This document shows, in pieces, positions 267-60,122 of a stretch of DNA of 64,000 nucleotides. The stretch lies in the sequence record MN850645.1. The stretch is one strand, 5' to 3'. The notes under the pieces were generated by a model. That model worked only from the letters and a program-made list of their open reading frames with translations, had not been told where the DNA came from and made no database searches. The position numbers were made by a program, and so were the translations under genes. Position 1 is the first letter of the stretch. Every line of letters begins with the position of its first letter. Source of the DNA: Escherichia phage outra.

Positions 267-1427
267 TTAGTAAGAACGACCACCAAACACATACTCTGTG
301 TAGTTTTTACGTTCTTTGTTTTTAATAACAACTTCAATGTTGTTACCTTTATCATCGGTGAACATAAAGTGATAACCGTCACCGCCCATTGTACGGATGT
401 GTTTTTCATCATACGTCAGCAAGATACGGTCTACACCCCAGTAGTAGTCACCTTCTTCGTCTTTATCTTCTACGGTAACGACTCCTTCCATTTCAGGAAG
501 ATGCTCTTCTCCTAGCTTATGGTCTACAGCTACAACATAACGATTACCGCTAAACAAACCCTGTGCTGTCATACCGTCAATATCGGTATCTGCCGAAACA
601 TCTCCTGTACGATCTACACCGTTAACTTTCAGAAGTTTAACTTCTTTTGCAGCATAGCGGTGTTCAGTAATACTGATACCCATTAATGCAAGTGCATCAG
701 AGAATTTGTCATTAGGGTAACGGTTAAGTTCTTCTACTAATGACTGAACAATATCAAAGTTCAAGTCCACGGACAGATTATAAAGCGTTTCAAAATCTGG
801 TAAAAAGGCTTTGTTCTCCAGATTTTTAGCCAGATAATCATCCATAGTAGCTTTAGGTAGTTTCTTATAGCTAAAGCTGTAGAAAATACGGCTAGGGCGA
901 TTACGCAAAAATTCTGATACATAACCATCATTTTTAGTCAATACAAACAGCTTGTCATAGCCACCAACACCATCCAGCAGGGTAAGCAAACCATCCTGTG
1001 CATCTTTTTCAGCATACAGTTTATCAAATTCATCGATCATAATCATCACAGGTTGTGTGATTTTAGACATAAAATTGATAAAGCCTTCACCATTAAAAGC
1101 ACTACCGATAGAAATAGTAGGAATACCCATTTCACGAAGAGCAGAAGACAGCATTTTAGCTTGCAAAGTTTTACCGCTACCCTTCGTACCCTCAAGGAGA
1201 ACACCTGTGTTTTTACCTTTGCGGCTAAGGAACGTCTTGATAATACGTTCTGATTTATCATCAGTATCACCGTATGTTACTGAAGGGACTTCCATATCGT
1301 TTTTAGGATACAGGAAGAACTCGCCACTTTGAGTAACACCTACACCAAAAGTTCCTGCTGGAATTTCTTCAATATCTGTACCAGACTTCTGACGCAGGAA
1401 GATTTGATTGCCGAATACTGTAAACAT
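267..1427 (-). CDS. AAA+ family ATPase (paralogue 1)
   Basis: Walker A GTKGSGKT, Walker B IMIDEFDK, sensor/Arg region RPSR; SD AGAGGAG before ATG; paralogous to 15995-17122. Confidence 0.8.
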   Translation of the reverse strand: MFTVFGNQIFLRQKSGTDIEEIPAGTFGVGVTQSGEFFLYPKNDMEVPSVTYGDTDDKSERIIKTFLSRKGKNTGVLLEGTKGSGKTLQAKMLSSALREMGIPTISIGSAFNGEGFINFMSKITQPVMIMIDEFDKLYAEKDAQDGLLTLLDGVGGYDKLFVLTKNDGYVSEFLRNRPSRIFYSFSYKKLPKATMDDYLAKNLENKAFLPDFETLYNLSVDLNFDIVQSLVEELNRYPNDKFSDALALMGISITEHRYAAKEVKLLKVNGVDRTGDVSADTDIDGMTAQGLFSGNRYVVAVDHKLGEEHLPEMEGVVTVEDKDEEGDYYWGVDRILLTYDEKHIRTMGGDGYHFMFTDDKGNNIEVVIKNKERKNYTEYVFGGRSY

Positions 1428-15994: not shown

Positions 15995-17122
15995 ATGAAA
16001 TACACGATTTATGGTGATATTGTAAGTGTAAATAAAGATATGGGCGTGGAATCTAACTATCTTCCACCTGGATTCTATACTGTTAGTCGTGATCCCCTTG
16101 GCAATTATTTTTTAAGCCGTGGTAATCTGACAGGTGTACCTGATGTTCTGTATGGTGAAACAGAAAAACGAGCAAATCACGTTATCCGTACATTCCATCG
16201 CCGGAGTGCACAAGGTAAAAATACAGGATTGCTTCTGACAGGAACTAAGGGTAGTGGTAAAACTATGTTAGCCAAACTCATTAGTCGTGACCTTGTAGAA
16301 GAAGGTATTCCAACTATTATGGTTACTCAAGCCTACAGCGATGCTAATTTCATTGAACTTATTAGCAAGATCACCGACAAAGCAGTGATTATTTTTGACG
16401 AGTTTGATAAAGTGTATGAGAAGAAACAAGATCAAGAAGCACTTCTCACTTTGTTAGATGGTACTGGCAGTGGTAATAAACTGTTTATTCTAACTAAAAA
16501 CAGTGGCTTTATCTCTGAATTCTTTCTAAATCGTCCTAGTCGTGTGTTTTATAATTTTAATTATGATAAAATCTCACTAGAAACTATGATTGACTATTTA
16601 GATAAAAACCTGGATAACAAAGCACACTTTGATAATTTCCAAAGGCTTTGGGATGTAAGTTTAGAGTTGTCCTTTGATGTGATCCAAGGTATAGTAGAAG
16701 AACTTAATTTCTACCCTGATTTATCCTTTAAAGAATGCATCTCTATGATGGGCGTTTCTTTGGGTGGTGGTAATAAGTGGGATATCAGCAGCGTTGTTAT
16801 TAATGGGAAACTTCAGAAAGTTAGCTGGGTATCTAGTTGGCATAACTTCACACCTGCAATCTTTTTAGGTGGCTCGTGCACACTAGACGTGTACTTGTCA
16901 TCTCCAAGTGATGCAGACTCTAAAGAAGCCCTTGCTAATAGCTCTTACGTGGTTTTTGATGATGAAGGAGATGCTCGAATTCCATTGAATGCGACAAAAA
17001 TGAAAGCAGATCTTATTACAGGCGGTAAAATCGTTGTGTTTAGTGATGATCCAGAAGATTCTTTCCGTATTGTTCTGGAACCAACTATCACCAATGGTGC
17101 AACTTTGGCAAGCGTGTTTTAA
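15995..17122 (+). CDS. AAA+ family ATPase (paralogue 2)
   Basis: Walker A GTKGSGKT, Walker B IIFDEFDK, NRPSR; collinear similarity to 267-1427 product. Confidence 0.8.
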   Translation: MKYTIYGDIVSVNKDMGVESNYLPPGFYTVSRDPLGNYFLSRGNLTGVPDVLYGETEKRANHVIRTFHRRSAQGKNTGLLLTGTKGSGKTMLAKLISRDLVEEGIPTIMVTQAYSDANFIELISKITDKAVIIFDEFDKVYEKKQDQEALLTLLDGTGSGNKLFILTKNSGFISEFFLNRPSRVFYNFNYDKISLETMIDYLDKNLDNKAHFDNFQRLWDVSLELSFDVIQGIVEELNFYPDLSFKECISMMGVSLGGGNKWDISSVVINGKLQKVSWVSSWHNFTPAIFLGGSCTLDVYLSSPSDADSKEALANSSYVVFDDEGDARIPLNATKMKADLITGGKIVVFSDDPEDSFRIVLEPTITNGATLASVF

Positions 17123-44657: not shown

Positions 44658-45470
44658 TTACTTAGTCAAATGATCTTCTATCATTTTTATGAAAGCAGGA
44701 TTGCTAAAAGCCTCTGCTGCCTTTTCTCTATAAACAAAGACTCCTCTATCTTCGTAAAGAAGAGTTTCTTCGTAATTAATTCCTGGGTTAACAACAATCA
44801 TTTTTGTACCCATATTAAGTGCAGGAAATAATTCCCAATTAAAATTGATAACTTGGTTTGAACATCCTACTACAACAACCAAATCTTGCATGGTCAGAGT
44901 ATCAAACAAGTAAGCCATATCTGCATACAAAGGTGCAGCCTCGCCAAAAAATACAACATTAGGCTTCACCCAGTTATAATCATCTATGTTTATACTATTG
45001 TAACCAATGTCTACCAGTGTTTTGTAATCTCCAGGATGCATACGGTAAACTACTTCAGGAAGATACCCGTGCACGTGAATAACAGAATCCCTGTCCACAC
45101 CTGCTCGCTCTAGTAGATCATCAACGTTTGTTGTCAAGTTTACTACTTGGTTAGGATATTCCTTAAACCACTTTGCTATTTGAATATGTGCAGCATTAGG
45201 TTGTACATCTTTAAGCTCAACACGTCTTTTGTTATAAAATTCGTGTGTTTTGGCATACAAATCCATACCGTTCTCGTCTACACCACCGACCACTGGAAGA
45301 TCTGGAGATGTTCTAACACGATAACCTGCTTGGAAAGCTCCAATATCGCAGACCTCTTCTAAATCATATTCTTCCCATAAGGCACGACCACTATCTGTGT
45401 CTGTTCGGAATGTTCGAATCCCACTGTCTGCACTTAAACCTGCGCCACTAACAAAAATTACTCTTCGCAT
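44658..45470 (-). CDS. Sir2-family (sirtuin-like) NAD-dependent protein
   Basis: N-terminal GAGLSADSGIRTFR, NAAH...TTNVDDLLERAG...IHVHG, VVFFGE blocks match sirtuin motifs; no CxxC...CxxC Zn ribbon seen. Confidence 0.7.
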   Translation of the reverse strand: MRRVIFVSGAGLSADSGIRTFRTDTDSGRALWEEYDLEEVCDIGAFQAGYRVRTSPDLPVVGGVDENGMDLYAKTHEFYNKRRVELKDVQPNAAHIQIAKWFKEYPNQVVNLTTNVDDLLERAGVDRDSVIHVHGYLPEVVYRMHPGDYKTLVDIGYNSINIDDYNWVKPNVVFFGEAAPLYADMAYLFDTLTMQDLVVVVGCSNQVINFNWELFPALNMGTKMIVVNPGINYEETLLYEDRGVFVYREKAAEAFSNPAFIKMIEDHLTK

Positions 45471-53505: not shown

Positions 53506-53923
53506 TACTTAAAATCTCCTCTTTTGTGATTTCAGGGTCTTCTTCAAAAACCATAATATCTCTTAAGAACGTTAATTCTTCCATAGATACTGGTATTGTA
53601 TCTTCTTCTGTTTTTCGTTTACATAAATCGTCAAGAAAGTTTTTAAAGTTTTCTGACAAATCGTAAAATTTCAACAGTTGATAATCACAGGAGGAGATCC
53701 TACCCAGTTCTAACATTCTTTCTAAGATATTTTCTGTGTTGCCATACAGCACACGAACTTCTCCGAAAGGGTTGACTGAATATTGTGAAGTTCTGAACCA
53801 TCCCTTTTTAGATACAGTGTAACGCTGTTCTGCTAAACTTTCAATAAAATTTTTAGCTCTTTTACAGTTTTGTTCTAAAGAGTAGTAGGCTTTTTCTACA
53901 AAGGTTACAGGTACTGGTAACAT
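53495..53923 (-). CDS. hypothetical protein (142 aa)
   Basis: AGGAGGAG SD. Confidence 0.5.
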   Translation of the reverse strand: MLPVPVTFVEKAYYSLEQNCKRAKNFIESLAEQRYTVSKKGWFRTSQYSVNPFGEVRVLYGNTENILERMLELGRISSCDYQLLKFYDLSENFKNFLDDLCKRKTEEDTIPVSMEELTFLRDIMVFEEDPEITKEEILSSGK

Positions 53924-53964
53924 ATCTCCTCCTAATAACCCCCTTGCGGGGGGTTTATACTAGA

Positions 53965-54618
53965 TTAATTATCAGAGGACACTTTATCAAGTTTTTCAGA
54001 GACTGTCAATACTTTTTCTTGTGATTCTTTCATTTCTGCTAAAATACTTTCAGCTTCATCACTATCAGGATCACCAGTCAACAGCATACTAATTAGTTGC
54101 TCCTTGCTGAAGTTCAGAATATCTTCCGCTGTTAACTCCAGTTGTTCTTCGATCTCTTCGATAAAAGTTTCACCGCCTGAAAAAGCATCTCGCAGTTTTG
54201 CAACTTCCATCGCTTCTTCTGGGGTTGCCCCAGCGTCTAAAGCTGCTAAAGCAAAATCTGCCCCACTACCAACAGCATAATAATCTTCAGTTAAAGGATA
54301 TGCTCGCGTTGGATTGTTACCCTCGTGCATATAAATTTTACCATCTGGGTGAACAACTAATGCCACAAACTCTTCATCTTCTTTATCAGGATCTGACTGG
54401 ATCACCAAACCTGGGATTGTCTCTTGTGCTGCTTGGCATTGTAAGTTTTGTTCGAACCAAGAAAAGAAAGTCAGGATAGAAGACAGACGTCCTGCACCAC
54501 CAACAAGGTAATCCCCAATTTTACGCACTTTCTTGAAATTTAAAGTGTCTACACGACTACCTACTGTTACTTTACCGTCAGACAGAATTTTGTTACGTGT
54601 TGCAATAATTGTTGTCAT
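53965..54618 (-). CDS. HslV-like proteasome-family Ntn hydrolase
   Basis: N-terminal MTTII (Thr directly after Met), KKVRK, GGAG, YYAVGSGADFALAALDAG blocks align with HslV; extra acidic C-terminal tail of about 50 aa. Confidence 0.6.
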   Translation of the reverse strand: MTTIIATRNKILSDGKVTVGSRVDTLNFKKVRKIGDYLVGGAGRLSSILTFFSWFEQNLQCQAAQETIPGLVIQSDPDKEDEEFVALVVHPDGKIYMHEGNNPTRAYPLTEDYYAVGSGADFALAALDAGATPEEAMEVAKLRDAFSGGETFIEEIEEQLELTAEDILNFSKEQLISMLLTGDPDSDEAESILAEMKESQEKVLTVSEKLDKVSSDN

Positions 54619-55109
54619 TGTACTTCCTCCTGTAGTGTTTTAAGGACTGCTTTACCACCGCTTACATATTTACGGAGGTAATCAATAGCTCTTAGTGTTT
54701 CTTTATCCACAAGAATTTTATTAGTTCTTGTTAGTGGATGATTTAGTAAATCACTGCAATTTCTTACTAACATAGATTTCTTGTGAAAGATACTGCTAAG
54801 AAAAAGAAGTTTAGAATCTTCTTCATCAATCAGGAGTAATTCTGAATTAGACCCAGCTATATTTATTATACACTCAAACAAGCCTTCTTGACTATCAGAT
54901 AATTCCTGGTAATATTTAGTTAGCCAATCCTCGCCTTTTAACCAACTAAAAAACATCTGAACTTTTTGCAAAGTTGTCATGTTCTCTAAACGAAGAGATA
55001 TCTCTTTTTCAATCTTGTCAATATAAATCTGTCTAAACTCATTCGGCTTAACTAAGCCAGCTTGATAGCATTCATCAATACCATTGCGATCAATCTCAAT
55101 TAGCGTCAT
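54615..55109 (-). CDS. hypothetical protein (164 aa)
   Basis: 4-nt overlap with HslV-like gene. Confidence 0.5.
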   Translation of the reverse strand: MTLIEIDRNGIDECYQAGLVKPNEFRQIYIDKIEKEISLRLENMTTLQKVQMFFSWLKGEDWLTKYYQELSDSQEGLFECIINIAGSNSELLLIDEEDSKLLFLSSIFHKKSMLVRNCSDLLNHPLTRTNKILVDKETLRAIDYLRKYVSGGKAVLKTLQEEVQ

Positions 55110-55145
55110 TTAACCTCCATAACAGGCATCCTTGCCTTGTAATTA

Positions 55146-55898
55146 TTAATATACTTCCGTGATGAACTGAGACAAACGGGAACGTTGGTTATCAGCAGTT
55201 GTCATTTCAACATAACCAATAAAATCCACAATAGCTTCCCTTTCTCCTTCTTCATTAATAGGAACAACACGATCTAACAAATCACCTAACCCGTTAGCTC
55301 TTCGTTTAATTGCATATGTTTGATTAATATCACCCATAATGACAATACGTGTATTAAGACCTGCTCGCTCAAGGAGAAGTTTTACTGTATTTGGTGACAT
55401 AAGTTGAACTTCATCAATAAGAATAATGCTGTTATCCCACGTAGCACCTAGTGCATAGTTTGGAATATTAAGTTCAATTTTGCCACTTGCAATATCGTTT
55501 TCCAATTTATTTGCAGTCATAAACTGTTGGAAAATTCTTTTAGTTGATTCGTAGTGTGCTGCTAGTTTATCAGTCTTATCTCCAGATAAGAAACCAATTT
55601 GATCATCACCTACTTCTGTCGGGTTTTTAAGGAAAATCAACTTTCTGAAATCACCAGCTTTAAGCATTTGCAATGCTTTCCATAGTGCTGTTGTCGTTTT
55701 TCCTGTTCCTGCTGGGGCGTTAACAATGGTTAAATCATTCCAAACCATGCTTCTTACAATAGCTTCTTGATTCCCAACAGGGGTAAATTCATCAAGACGG
55801 TAATCATCATTTCCTACTGCTTTAGCCGCATAACGACTGGCACGTTTGTCATCATTGGCTGCTGATTGACGACGAGCCTTTGCGGTTTTATTTCCCAT
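55146..55898 (-). CDS. phoH: PhoH-family ATPase
   Basis: Walker A NAPAGTGKTT, Walker B ILIDEVQ, IVIMGDINQ; AAGGAG SD. Confidence 0.85.
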   Translation of the reverse strand: MGNKTAKARRQSAANDDKRASRYAAKAVGNDDYRLDEFTPVGNQEAIVRSMVWNDLTIVNAPAGTGKTTTALWKALQMLKAGDFRKLIFLKNPTEVGDDQIGFLSGDKTDKLAAHYESTKRIFQQFMTANKLENDIASGKIELNIPNYALGATWDNSIILIDEVQLMSPNTVKLLLERAGLNTRIVIMGDINQTYAIKRRANGLGDLLDRVVPINEEGEREAIVDFIGYVEMTTADNQRSRLSQFITEVY

Positions 55899-55915
55899 GT
55901 TTGCACTCCTTATAA

Positions 55916-55934
55916 AAGGGGCTTTCGCCCCTTT
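55916..55934 (-). terminator. rho-independent terminator or attenuator
   Basis: AAGGGGC-TTTC-GCCCCTT stem-loop between lysozyme and phoH. Confidence 0.45.
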
Positions 55935-55936
55935 GT

Positions 55937-56437
55937 TTAGTTATAAGCGTCTAATGTTCCAGTTTTAAGCACCTGAATTACACGCTCTGCGCGATTAGGC
56001 GTTTGGCGATACCATTTACTTTTACGTAAATTTATAGAGGCTTGAGTATAATATGAATTACTCACTAAAGTCAAGCTATTTTTGAAAGATTCTGCACCTT
56101 TCAACCCCATTTGAAATACCATATTAATAATAGCCATTTTACGATTAGGACTTACTTTATCGTAAATAGGAGATAATATGGTACTTGAATGGATTTGTTG
56201 TATCGCTTTCTTTACATCACTTTCAAAGATTCTTCTAGCTTCCGCTTCAGTAATAACTCCATTGGTTTTTCTACCTACTAAGTTATCAAGAATGCGTATA
56301 GCTTCTGCTTTATCTTTGAGTTTTGTCAGAAGGTGTCCAATACCAACTGTCCAATACCCTTCGGTATCAGGATATACAGTTAGCTTTAGTCCTTCATCAA
56401 AACGTAACATATCAAACACATCAACTACTTTAGCCAT
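55937..56437 (-). CDS. T4-type lysozyme (GH24 endolysin)
   Basis: MLRFDEGLKLTVYPDTEGYWTVGIGHLL matches the T4 lysozyme catalytic region (Glu, Asp, Thr); 166 aa. Confidence 0.9.
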   Translation of the reverse strand: MAKVVDVFDMLRFDEGLKLTVYPDTEGYWTVGIGHLLTKLKDKAEAIRILDNLVGRKTNGVITEAEARRIFESDVKKAIQQIHSSTILSPIYDKVSPNRKMAIINMVFQMGLKGAESFKNSLTLVSNSYYTQASINLRKSKWYRQTPNRAERVIQVLKTGTLDAYN

Positions 56438-56597: not shown

Positions 56598-56864
56598 TTA
56601 CTCCGCAATCTGAGCCATGAATTCACGTAGTTCAGAAAAACCTCCTACGTGGGTTAGCTGTTCACCATCTTCCACAAAAATTTGAGGAAATGTGCGTGGT
56701 AGAACACCTGTTTTCTCTAAAACCAGATTCTGAATCTGATCTAAAGAATAGTCTTCATCTAAGGTAAGGTATTTAAAATCCTGTTCACGCTGTTCTAGTA
56801 GAATCTTAGCGTTAGTGCAGAAAGGACAATTTGGTTTACCGTAGATAATAAAATTCATTTTCAC
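56598..56864 (-). CDS. glutaredoxin (T4 NrdC-like)
   Basis: YGKPNCPFC active-site CxxC, 88 aa, thioredoxin-fold length. Confidence 0.8.
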   Translation of the reverse strand: MKMNFIIYGKPNCPFCTNAKILLEQREQDFKYLTLDEDYSLDQIQNLVLEKTGVLPRTFPQIFVEDGEQLTHVGGFSELREFMAQIAE

Positions 56865-57691
56865 TCCTTGTTTAAAAGTATAGTTAAAGTTTTTACAATA
56901 CCGCTATCAACACTTCGCGGATTTAAAGTAGGATCTGTTTTTAAATAAGATGTTGCTGGTCTGACTGCTTTGGAATTATAGGTTGAAGCAGATACAGGAT
57001 TAACTGTAACAGACAAATCTATAACAAGAAATATCTTTCGTGCAAAATCATACCAAGAAATATAATCTGCACCTGCATAGTGTACAATTTTACTATTTAC
57101 ACCATCTTTTACAAGTTTAAAAATTGTTTCTGCAAGATCAGGTGCATAAGTAGGACATGATAAATGATCACATACTACATTAAATTCTTTTTGACCACCG
57201 TTGTAGCGTTCCAACATAGTTTTCAAAAAGTTATGTCCAAATTCACTATAAACAGAAGCTGTTCTGATAATAAGTGCTGTAGGACAAACTGCTTGTACTA
57301 AAGTTTCACCTAATTGTTTACTGTAACCGTAGGTGTTCAAGGGGTTTGTTTTACTCTCTTCTGTGCCAGCAACATGCCCATCAAAAACATAGTCTGTTGA
57401 AATATGTACAAACTGTATCAGTAAATCATTACATGCTTTGGCAATGTTTGTTGCACCGTATGCATTAACATTTATACAGGTGTTAACATCTTCTTCAGCT
57501 TTATCTACTGCCGTGTAAGCCGCACAATTCACAACAACATCAGGCACGTGCTGTACAAGACTATTCATAACATCTTTAAAGTTGGTAATGTCTATATCAC
57601 TTGCTTCAATCAAAATAACATCTTCGGGCGCAACTTTTGCCAAAGACTGTCCTAATTGACCTTTTGAACCAAAGATTAAAAATTTTGTCAA
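56861..57691 (-). CDS. rmlD: dTDP-4-dehydrorhamnose reductase
   Basis: N-terminal Rossmann FGSKGQLG, 276 aa, operon context after rmlC. Confidence 0.75.
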   Translation of the reverse strand: MTKFLIFGSKGQLGQSLAKVAPEDVILIEASDIDITNFKDVMNSLVQHVPDVVVNCAAYTAVDKAEEDVNTCINVNAYGATNIAKACNDLLIQFVHISTDYVFDGHVAGTEESKTNPLNTYGYSKQLGETLVQAVCPTALIIRTASVYSEFGHNFLKTMLERYNGGQKEFNVVCDHLSCPTYAPDLAETIFKLVKDGVNSKIVHYAGADYISWYDFARKIFLVIDLSVTVNPVSASTYNSKAVRPATSYLKTDPTLNPRSVDSGIVKTLTILLNKE

Positions 57692-58242
57692 AATATCATC
57701 TCCTTTAGTGTTTTGGCTTGCTGATCTTTTTGTGACAAGATAGGTTTAAAATTAATATCATTAAAGATTAAATCAAAACCCCAATCTACATTGATATCTG
57801 GATCATTCCACGCAAGACTACACTCGGAAGTCGGATCGTAATATTCTGTACATTTATATTCAAAATCAGCAATGTCGCTAATCACAACAAAACCATGAGC
57901 GAAACCAGGAGGAATCCAAAATTGTGTTTTATTCTTTTCAGATAAAAGAACACCTACCCATTCTCCAAATGTTGGACTACCAACCCTAATATCTACAGCA
58001 ACATCATAAACTTCACCACGAACACAACGTACTAACTTCCCTTGTGGGTTTTTCTTTTGAAAATGAAGCCCACGTAGAACTCCTCGAATAGAACGTGAGT
58101 GGTTATCCTGGACAAAGTTTTGTTTACCTATGTATTGATCATATAAAGCCTGATTAAAACTTTCTAAGAAAAAGCCACGTTCATCTCCGTAAACGTCAGG
58201 TTGAATGATCAACAAATCTTCGATTTTTGTTGCTTGAATCAT
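57688..58242 (-). CDS. rmlC: dTDP-4-dehydrorhamnose 3,5-epimerase
   Basis: 184 aa cupin-like, RGLHFQ motif, operon context. Confidence 0.75.
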   Translation of the reverse strand: MIQATKIEDLLIIQPDVYGDERGFFLESFNQALYDQYIGKQNFVQDNHSRSIRGVLRGLHFQKKNPQGKLVRCVRGEVYDVAVDIRVGSPTFGEWVGVLLSEKNKTQFWIPPGFAHGFVVISDIADFEYKCTEYYDPTSECSLAWNDPDINVDWGFDLIFNDINFKPILSQKDQQAKTLKEMIF

Positions 58243-58254
58243 TTAATCTCCCCT

Positions 58255-59124
58255 TTATTTTAATTTAAGTAAATACTTGCCGTAGTCTGTTTTACTTAAA
58301 ACCTCTCCAGAACTTTTTACGGAATCTAAAGTAATCCATTCATTTTTAAAAGCAATCTCTTCTAGGCATGCAACCTTCATACCTTGTTGCTTTTCTATTG
58401 CATGAACAAATTGAGATGCTTCCATAAGACTTTCATGTGTTCCTGTATCCAACCAAGTGAAACCTCTTCCTAGCTTACAGACACGTAAAGCCTTTTCTTT
58501 CCAGTACATCTCATTTATATCTGTGATCTCTAACTCCCCTCTAGCAGAAGGCTTAACGCTTTTAGCTTTCTGTATAACAGAATTATCGTAAAAGTACAAG
58601 CCTGTAATTGCATAGTTGCTTTTTGGTGCTTTTGGTTTTTCTTCAATACTTACCACTGTACCTTCAGAATCAAACTCAACAACACCAAACCTTTCAGGAT
58701 CATTTACGTGATACCCAAAAATATTAGCTCCACCATTCTTTTCAATATGTTCTCTAGCAGAATCTAAAATGCTACCAAAACTCTGACCAAAGAATAAATT
58801 ATCACCTAGAACAAGTGCTACAGAATCTTCACCAATAAAGCTCTCACCAATAATAAACGCTTCTGCTAAACCTTTTGGGCTGTCCTGTATTGCATACTGT
58901 AGGGAAACACCAAAAGAAGAACCATCACCTAAAAGATTTACAAAATTAATTTGATCTTCTGGTGTTGTAATTATTAGTATTTCCCTAATTCCAGAAAGCA
59001 TTAGGACAGAGAGTGGATAATAAATCATAGGTTTATCATAAATTGGTAATAGTTGTTTACTAACCCCTTTAGTAACTGGGTAAAGTCTTGTTCCACTACC
59101 ACCTGCTAAGATAATACCTTTCAT
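58255..59124 (-). CDS. rmlA: glucose-1-phosphate thymidylyltransferase
   Basis: [18 protein letters not shown] nucleotidyltransferase signature, 289 aa. Confidence 0.85.
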
Positions 59125-59132
59125 ACTCCTCC

Positions 59133-60122
59133 TTAAACTTTATTTTCCCACCACTCTTTGTTATCTACATACCAATCAATGGTTGAATAAAGTTTTTCTT
59201 CAAATGTGCCTTTAGCTTTCCACCCTAATTCCTTTTCAATCTTATAAGGATTCACTTCATATCTTAAATCATGCCCAGGCCTATCTGTAACCATCTCAAT
59301 GAGGCTACAAGCATCTGTTTCAGATGGATATACCGCATCCATATAATCGCAAATCATATAGATTACATCAATATTAGTTCTAGGGTTTCTGCTCCCAATA
59401 TTATATGTCTCTCCAGATTTGCCTTTAGTTACTACTAGGTGTAATGCTTCTGCGTGATCGTCAACGTATAACCAATCTCTTACTTGAAGACCATTGCCAT
59501 AAACAGGGATTGGTTTATTCATTAAGATATTTGTTATCGTCTTAGGTATTAGTTTTTCTGGATGATGATATGCTCCAAAATTATTTGAACAATTTGTTAT
59601 AACTGTCGGAATACCATAAGTACGATGCCACGCTCTTACCAAATGATCGCTTGCAGCTTTAGATGCAGCATATGGACTACTTGGTTTATAAGGATTCTGT
59701 TCTGTAAACGGATAATCCCCTTCTTCCATATCACCATACACTTCATCTGTTGAAATATGATGGAACATTTTAAGATTTGATTTATCTCCCATTAAACGAA
59801 CAGCTTCTAGAAGATTAAATGTCCCAACAATATTTGAATTTATAAAAACACTCGGTGATGCTATTGAATTATCTACGTGACTTTCTGCTGCAAGATGCAT
59901 TATATAATCTGGATTAACATCTGCCACAATCTTAGCAGTTAACTGTGCATTTGTCAAGTCAACACGACAAAACTTTACATTAGGTGTTTCTGATAAATTT
60001 CTAGGGTCTGAAGCGTAACCCCATTTATCTATAACGTAAATATCATTCTTAGTATTTTTAGCTAGGAAACGAACTACCGCACTTCCAATAAAGCCTAAAC
60101 CACCTGTTACTAAGTATTTCAT
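59133..60122 (-). CDS. rmlB: dTDP-glucose 4,6-dehydratase
   Basis: TGGLGFIGS Rossmann motif, YAASK (YxxxK) catalytic motif, 329 aa. Confidence 0.8.

Follow-up and report, generated by a model that had tools for sequence, protein, structure and literature searches.

Phage proteasome homologues were catalogued in 2021, when Fuchs, Alva and Lupas described PPH as proteins of about 140 amino acids (aa) from tailed phages, placed in group I together with HslV and BPH and devoid of helix H2 (PMC8665760). In the same work, H2 was likewise stated to be absent from RPC, and a long acidic pore loop was attributed to BPH; RPC, reported only from proteobacterial genomes, carried a C-terminal extension matching no known structure. 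A related gene was analysed here in a stretch of 64,000 nucleotides from Escherichia phage outra (sequence record MN850645.1), hereafter called the window, with positions counted from its first letter. The window derives from a phi92-like Escherichia myovirus of the genus Justusliebigvirus, and 3.1 kb around the locus showed identities of 99.9% with phage Paula and 99.4% with phi92. The interval 53965-55109 comprises two overlapping genes on the minus strand, the orthologues of phi92 gp058 (217 aa) and gp059 (164 aa). As judged from its sequence and model, gp058 is most likely of the PPH/RPC type, related to HslV and BPH. We lean towards regarding it as an active Thr1 peptidase of this type that works independently of an unfoldase, is directed by its tail and serves as an accessory, non-structural protease in mid-infection. 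The identification of gp058 is already public, since GenBank, RefSeq and UniRef list the protein as 'peptidase HslV family', 'putative 20S proteasome' or '20S proteasome', and phi92 gp058 has been labelled 'putative 20S proteasome' since publication of the genome.

The coding sequence of gp058 (53965..54618, minus strand; 217 aa plus stop) was assigned from the list of open reading frames (ORFs), from its 99-100% identity to annotated proteins and from two profile matches. A sequence-only reading of the window had proposed an HslV-like peptidase of the proteasome family. The family was borne out, as gp058 matched PHROG 1040 ('peptidase HslV family') with an E value of 1.3e-61 and reached 25.1 bits with Pfam Proteasome (PF00227), above the gathering score of 22.4 that marks the superfamily. 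A profile of the gp058 family matched HslV (E 2e-16) and the 20S beta5 subunit (E 1e-7). The N-terminus reads MTTIIATRNK, and Met1-Thr2 aligned on Met-Thr1 of HslV, so that the MTTII start with Thr directly after Met was found as that reading had described it. The shared blocks it had named were all present, namely KKVRK (aa 29-33), GGAG (aa 40-43) and YYAVGSGADFALAALDAG (aa 113-130), and aligned with the blocks KKVRR, GFAGG and AIGSGGPYA of HslV from E. coli and T. maritima. In this alignment, KKVRK, GGAG and YAVGSGADFALAA correspond to the Lys33, oxyanion-Gly and GSG blocks of HslV. The AlphaFold model, built from 28 homologues, had a pLDDT of 84 (about 90 in the core) and showed the alpha-beta-beta-alpha Ntn fold, which is what the proposed check by structure prediction had looked for. 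A solved structure of a phage member of the family was not present in the PDB copy searched.

The Ntn/proteasome core spans aa 1-155 (54154..54618, minus strand). Its putative catalytic residues are Thr2 (codon 54613-54615), which becomes Thr1 once Met is removed, Asp14 (54577-54579) and Lys30 (54529-54531), all on the minus strand; Gly43, Ser118 of the GSG block and Asp144/Ser147 of RDAFSGG were listed with them. M1, T2, T3, D14, K30, G41, G43 and G117-S118-G119 were invariant across homologues down to 32% identity, and R143, D144, S147 and G148 of the RDxxSGG block were nearly so. Thus the catalytic Thr and Lys demanded by the sequence-only reading were in place. T2, D14, K30 and G43, invariant in the 28 homologues, occupy the HslV positions Thr1, Asp17, Lys33 and Gly47, from which a catalytic role may be assumed. 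The RDxxSGG block presumably resembles the Asp166/Ser169 motif of 20S beta subunits, the residue mapping being our assumption. The ratio of non-synonymous to synonymous substitutions (dN/dS) of the core was 0.12 in comparison with phAPEC8, which indicates purifying selection. Homologues were found in 166 phage records, including 106 of Escherichia, 15 of Aeromonas, 12 of Vibrio and 10 of Klebsiella phages.

The likeness to HslV held for the aligned blocks and the Met-Thr start and did not extend to orthology: the NCBIfam HslV equivalog models NF003964 and TIGR03692 gave 34.0 bits (cut-off 137) and 31.6 bits (cut-off 157.75), and H2 was absent. By these sequence comparisons, gp058 is HslV-like yet not an HslV orthologue. 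In the model, a single long helix (45-67) stands where HslV has H1 and H2, and is followed by a coil (68-83) and a strand (84-89); further helices were predicted at 120-128 and 133-143, and the core ends with the strand 152-155. An acidic loop containing Pro and Gly, IPGLVIQSDPDKEDEEF (aa 68-84; 54367..54417, minus strand; net charge -5), is predicted to replace helix H2 and the pore loop. Within it, D81 was invariant and F84 nearly invariant. As described for PPH and RPC, the predicted structure kept H1, H3 and H4 without H2 and formed a compact core with neither S12/H5 elements nor a propeptide; the 166 phage records agree with the occurrence of these proteins in tailed phages or prophage regions. 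With a core of 155 aa and a tail of 62 aa, gp058 is closer to the description of RPC than to that of the PPH of about 140 residues, a comparison made by description only. BPH, with its heptameric double ring, did not emerge as the closest relative in fold or sequence.

A profile search among 1.84 billion representative proteins yielded 8217 relatives of gp058 at E <=1e-3 and 57 at E <=1e-30. Tailed proteins of 180-350 aa headed the list; beginning at E values near 1e-20, the relatives were proteins of 137-155 aa that aligned end to end. The latter had the MTTI start, D14, K30, GSG and D.YSGGE in common with gp058 and were likewise without the H2 region. The PPH-like proteins of about 140 aa, 31-40% identical to the gp058 core, were among the nearest relatives outside the tailed subfamily and fit the published description of PPH (PMC8665760). 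Tail-less phage proteins of about 180 aa ranked between the tailed proteins and the 137-155-aa group. Genes for such tail-less proteins were also seen at individual loci. In Aeromonas phage 2L372D, a second, tail-less proteasome-like gene of 183 aa (L004:2432-2983) lies directly upstream of the tailed protease gene (L004:3001-3885), and a gene of the same kind and length (L011:5001-5552) precedes the tailed protease of the metagenome contig L011. These tail-less 183-aa genes of Aeromonas-type phages matched PHROG 1040 (E 1e-25) and retained Thr, Asp and Lys. Tail-less proteasome-like genes of about 182 aa were found alone in two metagenomic phage contigs of about 100 kb (L009 and L010).

The C-terminal tail of gp058 (aa 156-217; 53968..54153, minus strand) has predicted helices at 164-169, 172-181 and 188-213. 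It contains 17 Asp and Glu against five Lys and Arg, giving a net charge of -12 and a pI of 4.05; the extra acidic tail of the sequence-only reading was therefore recovered, with a length of 62 aa instead of the about 50 aa given there. The tail searched alone had no Pfam match. The last 32 codons of gp058 evolve fast (dN/dS about 1.5 in comparison with phAPEC8), and the far C-terminus is variable. The tail motif LTAEDILNFSKEQLISMLLTG (aa 162-182; 54073..54135, minus strand; family consensus LT.E.....SKEELI..LFGE) was conserved in all tailed homologues. It also occurred in the tails of ClpP-like proteins of the phages PWH3a-P1 and ICP1 and of the metagenome locus L011; a scan of the window for other ORFs with the motif gave none that was convincing. 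An HeH/SAP-like DNA-binding motif suspected in the distal tails of Vibrio and Aeromonas homologues stays at the level of a visual resemblance; Pfam returned nothing even at E 10. A conserved ORF of 60-65 aa stands before the protease slot in Vibrio phages including ICP1 (L005:2327-2524, L013:2790-2984, L014:3276-3458, L003:1490-1684), and contains a stretch, 'S(D/N)EELF..(M/L)I', that recalls the tail motif; its BLAST match to the tail of Vibrio phage VnaP had an E value of only 0.08.

The Vibrio natriegens phage VnaP shows the gene order lysozyme, PhoH, HNH, 65-aa ORF, 155-aa ORF and Ntn peptidase with tail (277 aa), with DNA ligase farther on. The order was identical in its relative PWH3a-P1, in which the flanking ORFs are orthologous (58% and 67% identical) and the peptidase slot is taken by a 321-aa protein with a ClpP-like N-terminal domain (VPIG_00091, L013:3459-4424). 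The C-terminal 132 residues of this protein were 45% identical to the VnaP tail (E 3e-24). The same pattern was observed in the Aeromonas-type lineage, where phage 2L372D has an Ntn head and the contig L011 a ClpP-like head (L011:5568-6542; 31.1 bits with Pfam CLP_protease, threshold 20.2), the two tails being 36% identical over 149 residues (E 2e-17). ORF211 of the Vibrio cholerae phage ICP1 (L014:3468-4448) is of the ClpP-like type with the same tail, and was 100% conserved in nearly all of 81 ICP1-lineage records at >=99% identity. The ClpP triad is matched in the ClpP-like heads by aligned Ser, His and Asp residues. At the sequence level, the occurrence of Ntn and ClpP-like heads suggests that the catalytic domain was replaced non-orthologously in two lineages. 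Since the tail is carried by two unrelated folds, specific packing on the head is unlikely and an independent interaction module more likely; since one peptidase has been replaced by another, proteolysis would be the activity under selection. The exchange of heads on a constant tail thus provides independent comparative evidence for this activity, and suggests that the tail rather than the head deserves study.

An ICP1-type scaffold gene was found in 271 phage records, comprising ICP1-like, PWH3a-P1-like, Aeromonas 2L372D-like and phi92/phAPEC8-like phages, the Ntn peptidase in 166 records and the ICP1-type ClpP-like gene in 88 Vibrio records (E <=1e-30). The genus counts of the scaffold records equalled the Ntn peptidase counts once about 104 Vibrio records and one Aeromonas record were added to the latter, so that, compared by genus counts, a slot protease appears near-universal in this clade. 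As a tentative generalization, and one that may well prove too wide, myoviruses with the ICP1-type scaffold gene could carry a mid-infection 'modular protease'. In such an enzyme, a constant tail would pick the partner or target, the head would have been exchanged at least two times between the Ntn and ClpP-like types, unrelated folds that both belong to self-compartmentalising peptidases, and gp059 would act as adaptor or regulator in the coliphages; this would be unfoldase-independent targeted degradation of a kind not yet described.

The product of gp059 is encoded directly upstream of the peptidase (54615..55109, minus strand). Its stop codon and the peptidase start overlap by 4 nt (ATGA), an arrangement of translational coupling, and the ribosome-binding site of the peptidase, AGGAGG (54626..54631, minus strand), lies 7 nt before the ATG within the 3′ end of gp059; it was read from the sequence and is annotated in the phi92 record. 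The protein matched PHROG 14834 (function unknown) and no Pfam family, in agreement with the sequence-only reading. Its model was all-helical (pLDDT 93.5) and matched none of the solved structures. In phAPEC8 (hmmsearch E 7e-91) and the metagenomic contigs L006 (3e-31) and L008 (7e-42), a homologue immediately precedes the peptidase gene; in contig L007 (3e-39), one short ORF intervenes. The peptidases of these three contigs were 42-52% identical to that of the window, and the genes downstream of them differed each time. The gene is under purifying selection (non-synonymous divergence, pN, 0.22, with saturated synonymous sites). Homologues of gp059 were not detectable in Vibrio and Aeromonas phages. 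Remote homology to the ORFs of about 150 aa upstream of the Vibrio and Aeromonas proteases was not supported (hhalign probability <6%; hmmsearch E 0.007-0.03, obtained in a tiny database). The notion that gp059 is a degenerate peptidase paralogue or 'alpha-like' subunit, suggested by FFSW, IAGS and SGG look-alikes, was rejected (hhalign probability 0.1%, all-helical model).

In phage VEcB, a species exemplar, the homologues of lysozyme and gp057 enclose a single ORF of 267 aa (vecB_055, L018:3496-4299), in which PhoH residues 1-113 are fused in frame to peptidase residues 63-217. The VEcB DNA aligned to window positions 53870-54433 and 55555-55999, and the junction of the two segments shows 9 nt of microhomology; hence about 1.1 kb is missing (54434-55554), including Thr1, Asp14, Lys30 and Gly43 of the peptidase, gp059 in its entirety and the C-terminal half of PhoH. 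Unless this is an assembly error, VEcB is a natural deletion and the module is therefore dispensable for laboratory propagation. Together with the well-developed genetic system of ICP1, it offers ready material for a substrate search. Descriptions of the head exchange, of the VEcB deletion and of the mis-annotated S78_2 protease dealt with below were not found in the literature searched, nor were functional studies of phage HslV-like or PPH proteins or of ICP1 ORF211.

The following course of events is proposed. Host methionine aminopeptidase would remove Met1 and expose the Thr1 nucleophile, as in E. coli HslV. The subunits would self-assemble into a ring-type particle, its presumed pore lined by the acidic loop, and this particle would work without a dedicated AAA+ unfoldase. 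The C-terminal tail would serve as a separate module recruiting the peptidase to a partner or substrate, because related phages retain tail and slot, yet replace the Ntn head by a ClpP-like one. The co-inherited helical protein gp059 would be the best partner candidate, as adaptor, regulator or substrate. The sequence-only reading had suggested host defence or regulatory proteins as possible targets; the present comparisons neither favour nor disfavour any particular substrate. The enzyme would act in mid-infection as an accessory non-structural protease, not in capsid maturation, and may be dispensable in the laboratory. Of these elements, the enzyme class is well supported, and we infer the assembly, the ATPase independence and the roles of the tail and of gp059. 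Several points weigh against this proposal. The literature holds no measured activity, oligomeric state or substrate for any family member; ring assembly is deduced by homology, and the authors who defined PPH caution that such homologues may form other assemblies (PMC8665760). The linkage of gp059 was observed in a single phage lineage, for which shared descent could be an alternative explanation. The expression timing, given below, is that of a gene block in a distant relative, not of gp058 itself, the VEcB deletion may conceivably be an artefact of assembly, and host HslU or another host unfoldase may be the partner.

This last point leads to a reading that we regard as rather unlikely, in which gp058 substitutes for HslV and its hexameric double rings dock host HslU, or co-assemble with host HslV, and so redirect an ATP-dependent protease. 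E. coli, the host, has HslU. Among solved structures, HslV comes closest in both fold and sequence (profile E 2e-16, phmmer E 5e-8, 35% identity over 139 aa), and an Arg is found almost without exception at the position aligned to HslV Arg35. However, gp058 fell short of the HslV equivalog models by about 100 bits or more, and its structure model lacks H2, which contributes to the H1/H2 face on the side away from the H3/H4 ring-ring contact, and has the acidic loop instead. Lys28 of HslV binds the HslU C-terminus, yet the residue aligned to it varies among gp058 homologues. The ClpP-like head of sister phages would moreover need a different unfoldase, and this interchangeability, with the missing H2, the acidic loop and the variable Lys28-aligned residue, argues against specific dependence on HslU. 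An adjacent HslU-type partner was absent, as already noted in the sequence-only reading: the next upstream gene is PhoH-like, no HslU was present, and neither HslU nor another AAA+ unfoldase stands alongside the peptidase as an operon partner. PhoH, although a constant neighbour, is not an unfoldase-type ATPase. Two paralogous AAA genes in the window (267..1427, minus strand, and 15995..17122, plus strand; PHROG 2376, Pfam AAA PF00004) share the Walker A sequence GTKGSGKT and lie on opposite strands, about 15 kb apart and 37-53 kb from the peptidase. They were rejected as dedicated partners, because PHROG 2376 is common among phages without the peptidase, such as those of Bacillus, Enterococcus and Staphylococcus. 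The phAPEC8-like phages have only one copy of this AAA gene.

A capsid-associated role, as a second maturation protease or a packaged protein whose tail is a capsid- or scaffold-targeting signal, appears improbable. It would fit the presence of the slot protease in most of the clade sharing the ICP1-type scaffold gene, and maturation proteases often have C-terminal targeting segments. The ClpP-like heads, too, scored best against 'head maturation protease, ClpP-related' (68 bits, with cellular ClpP at 31 bits), but remained below the 120-bit cut-off of that model. The head operon of phi92-like phages, as in phage VivaForever, comprises the portal, a 159-aa ORF, a 371-aa ORF whose product is the ICP1 scaffold homologue, the decoration protein and a major capsid protein of the lambda E type. 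The 159-aa ORF (L016:25778-26257), between portal and scaffold, matched Peptidase_S78_2 (XkdF-like) with 44.1 bits against a cut-off of 24, and the ICP1 'capsid protease' Gp125 is likewise a Peptidase_S78_2. A conventional head protease is therefore present beside the scaffold, and gp058 was disfavoured as the prohead protease once this was found. This ORF is annotated as 'DNA methyltransferase' in many phi92-, rV5- and phiTE-like records, a label that, given the match, is probably wrong. The gp058 gene itself belongs to the nucleotide-metabolism block and is separated from the head genes by about 35 kb. Expression of the corresponding ICP1 block, gp176-gp211 with the ClpP-like ORF211 as its last gene, reaches its maximum at 12 min, ahead of the late structural genes, and VEcB is viable without the catalytic N-terminus; both observations speak against a role in the capsid. 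Least probable of all, and hardly credible to us, is a non-degradative function of gp058, either as a specific ligase or transpeptidase like connectase or as a catalytically silent structural subunit. Connectase illustrates that proteasome homologues can be ligases (PMC8665760), and activity has been measured for no PPH in the literature; nevertheless, the connectase signature, an insertion between strands S3 and S4, is absent from the gp058 model, no catalytic residue varies, and purifying selection acts on the core. The intact Ser/His/Asp triad of the ClpP-like replacement head also points to proteolysis as the conserved activity.

The immediate neighbours of the peptidase are a PhoH-like gene and two genes for proteins of unknown function. 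The PhoH-like ATPase gene (55146..55898, minus strand; Pfam PhoH E 1.2e-35) is a conserved syntenic neighbour upstream of the gp059/gp058 pair. In every related locus examined, PhoH preceded the protease slot by one to several genes, mostly one to four and in Aeromonas-type phages up to eight; it is part of a generally syntenic block of ribonucleotide reductase, glutaredoxin, lysozyme and PhoH. Pattern matching gave a small hairpin, AGGCA-loop-TGCCT, between PhoH and the gp059 ORF (55124..55137), and a GC hairpin, CCCCC-GCAA-GGGGG, after the peptidase stop and before the ribosome-binding site of the next gene (53939..53953), neither being assigned to a strand. With a third at 55915-55934, such short GC-rich hairpins occupy successive intergenic gaps just upstream of the next ribosome-binding site; they have a terminator-like score on the non-coding strand, and one has a GCAA tetraloop. 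They might serve in transcript processing, stability or attenuation. The minus-strand block of the peptidase also contains a homologue of Sir2-like NAD-dependent deacetylase (44658-45470) and a complete dTDP-rhamnose pathway with RmlA-D homologues (56861-60122), both as annotated in phi92. In Vibrio phage 1.193.O, a TnpB/IS605 OrfB-type gene is inserted directly upstream of the peptidase gene (L003:1767-2867); it matched Pfam OrfB_IS605 and a Cas12f1-like TNB domain and is annotated in the record as 'coil containing protein'.

In comparison with the described systems, gp058 shares with PPH and RPC that it is phage-encoded, starts with Met-Thr without a propeptide and has a compact core with a catalytic triad and without H2 and S12/H5. 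It differs from PPH in a core of about 155 instead of about 140 aa, the greater length being due to the 16-residue acidic loop, and in the 62-aa acidic tail with its conserved motif. The C-terminal extension likens it to RPC, by description; unlike RPC, reported from proteobacterial genomes only, it belongs to a lytic phage. With HslV it has in common, on the alignment, the Met-Thr start with the Thr1 nucleophile, the KKVR(K/R) block with Lys33, the GxAG oxyanion region and the GSG block. In contrast to HslV, it has neither H2 nor an adjacent HslU, its first hairpin is shorter, an RDxxSGG motif close to the core's end replaces the HslV C-terminal sequence, and the acidic tail is additional. 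BPH resembles gp058 as a group I proteasome homologue with no known unfoldase and in having a long acidic loop placed at the pore (PMC8665760), but retains H2, has no tail and forms an established heptameric double ring. ICP1 ORF211 and PWH3a-P1 VPIG_00091, annotated by homology only, are unrelated to gp058 in fold and mechanism (Ser/His/Asp); they nevertheless occupy the same slot, in the order lysozyme, PhoH, small ORFs and protease, with DNA ligase farther on, and carry a homologous tail including the SKEELI..LFGE motif.

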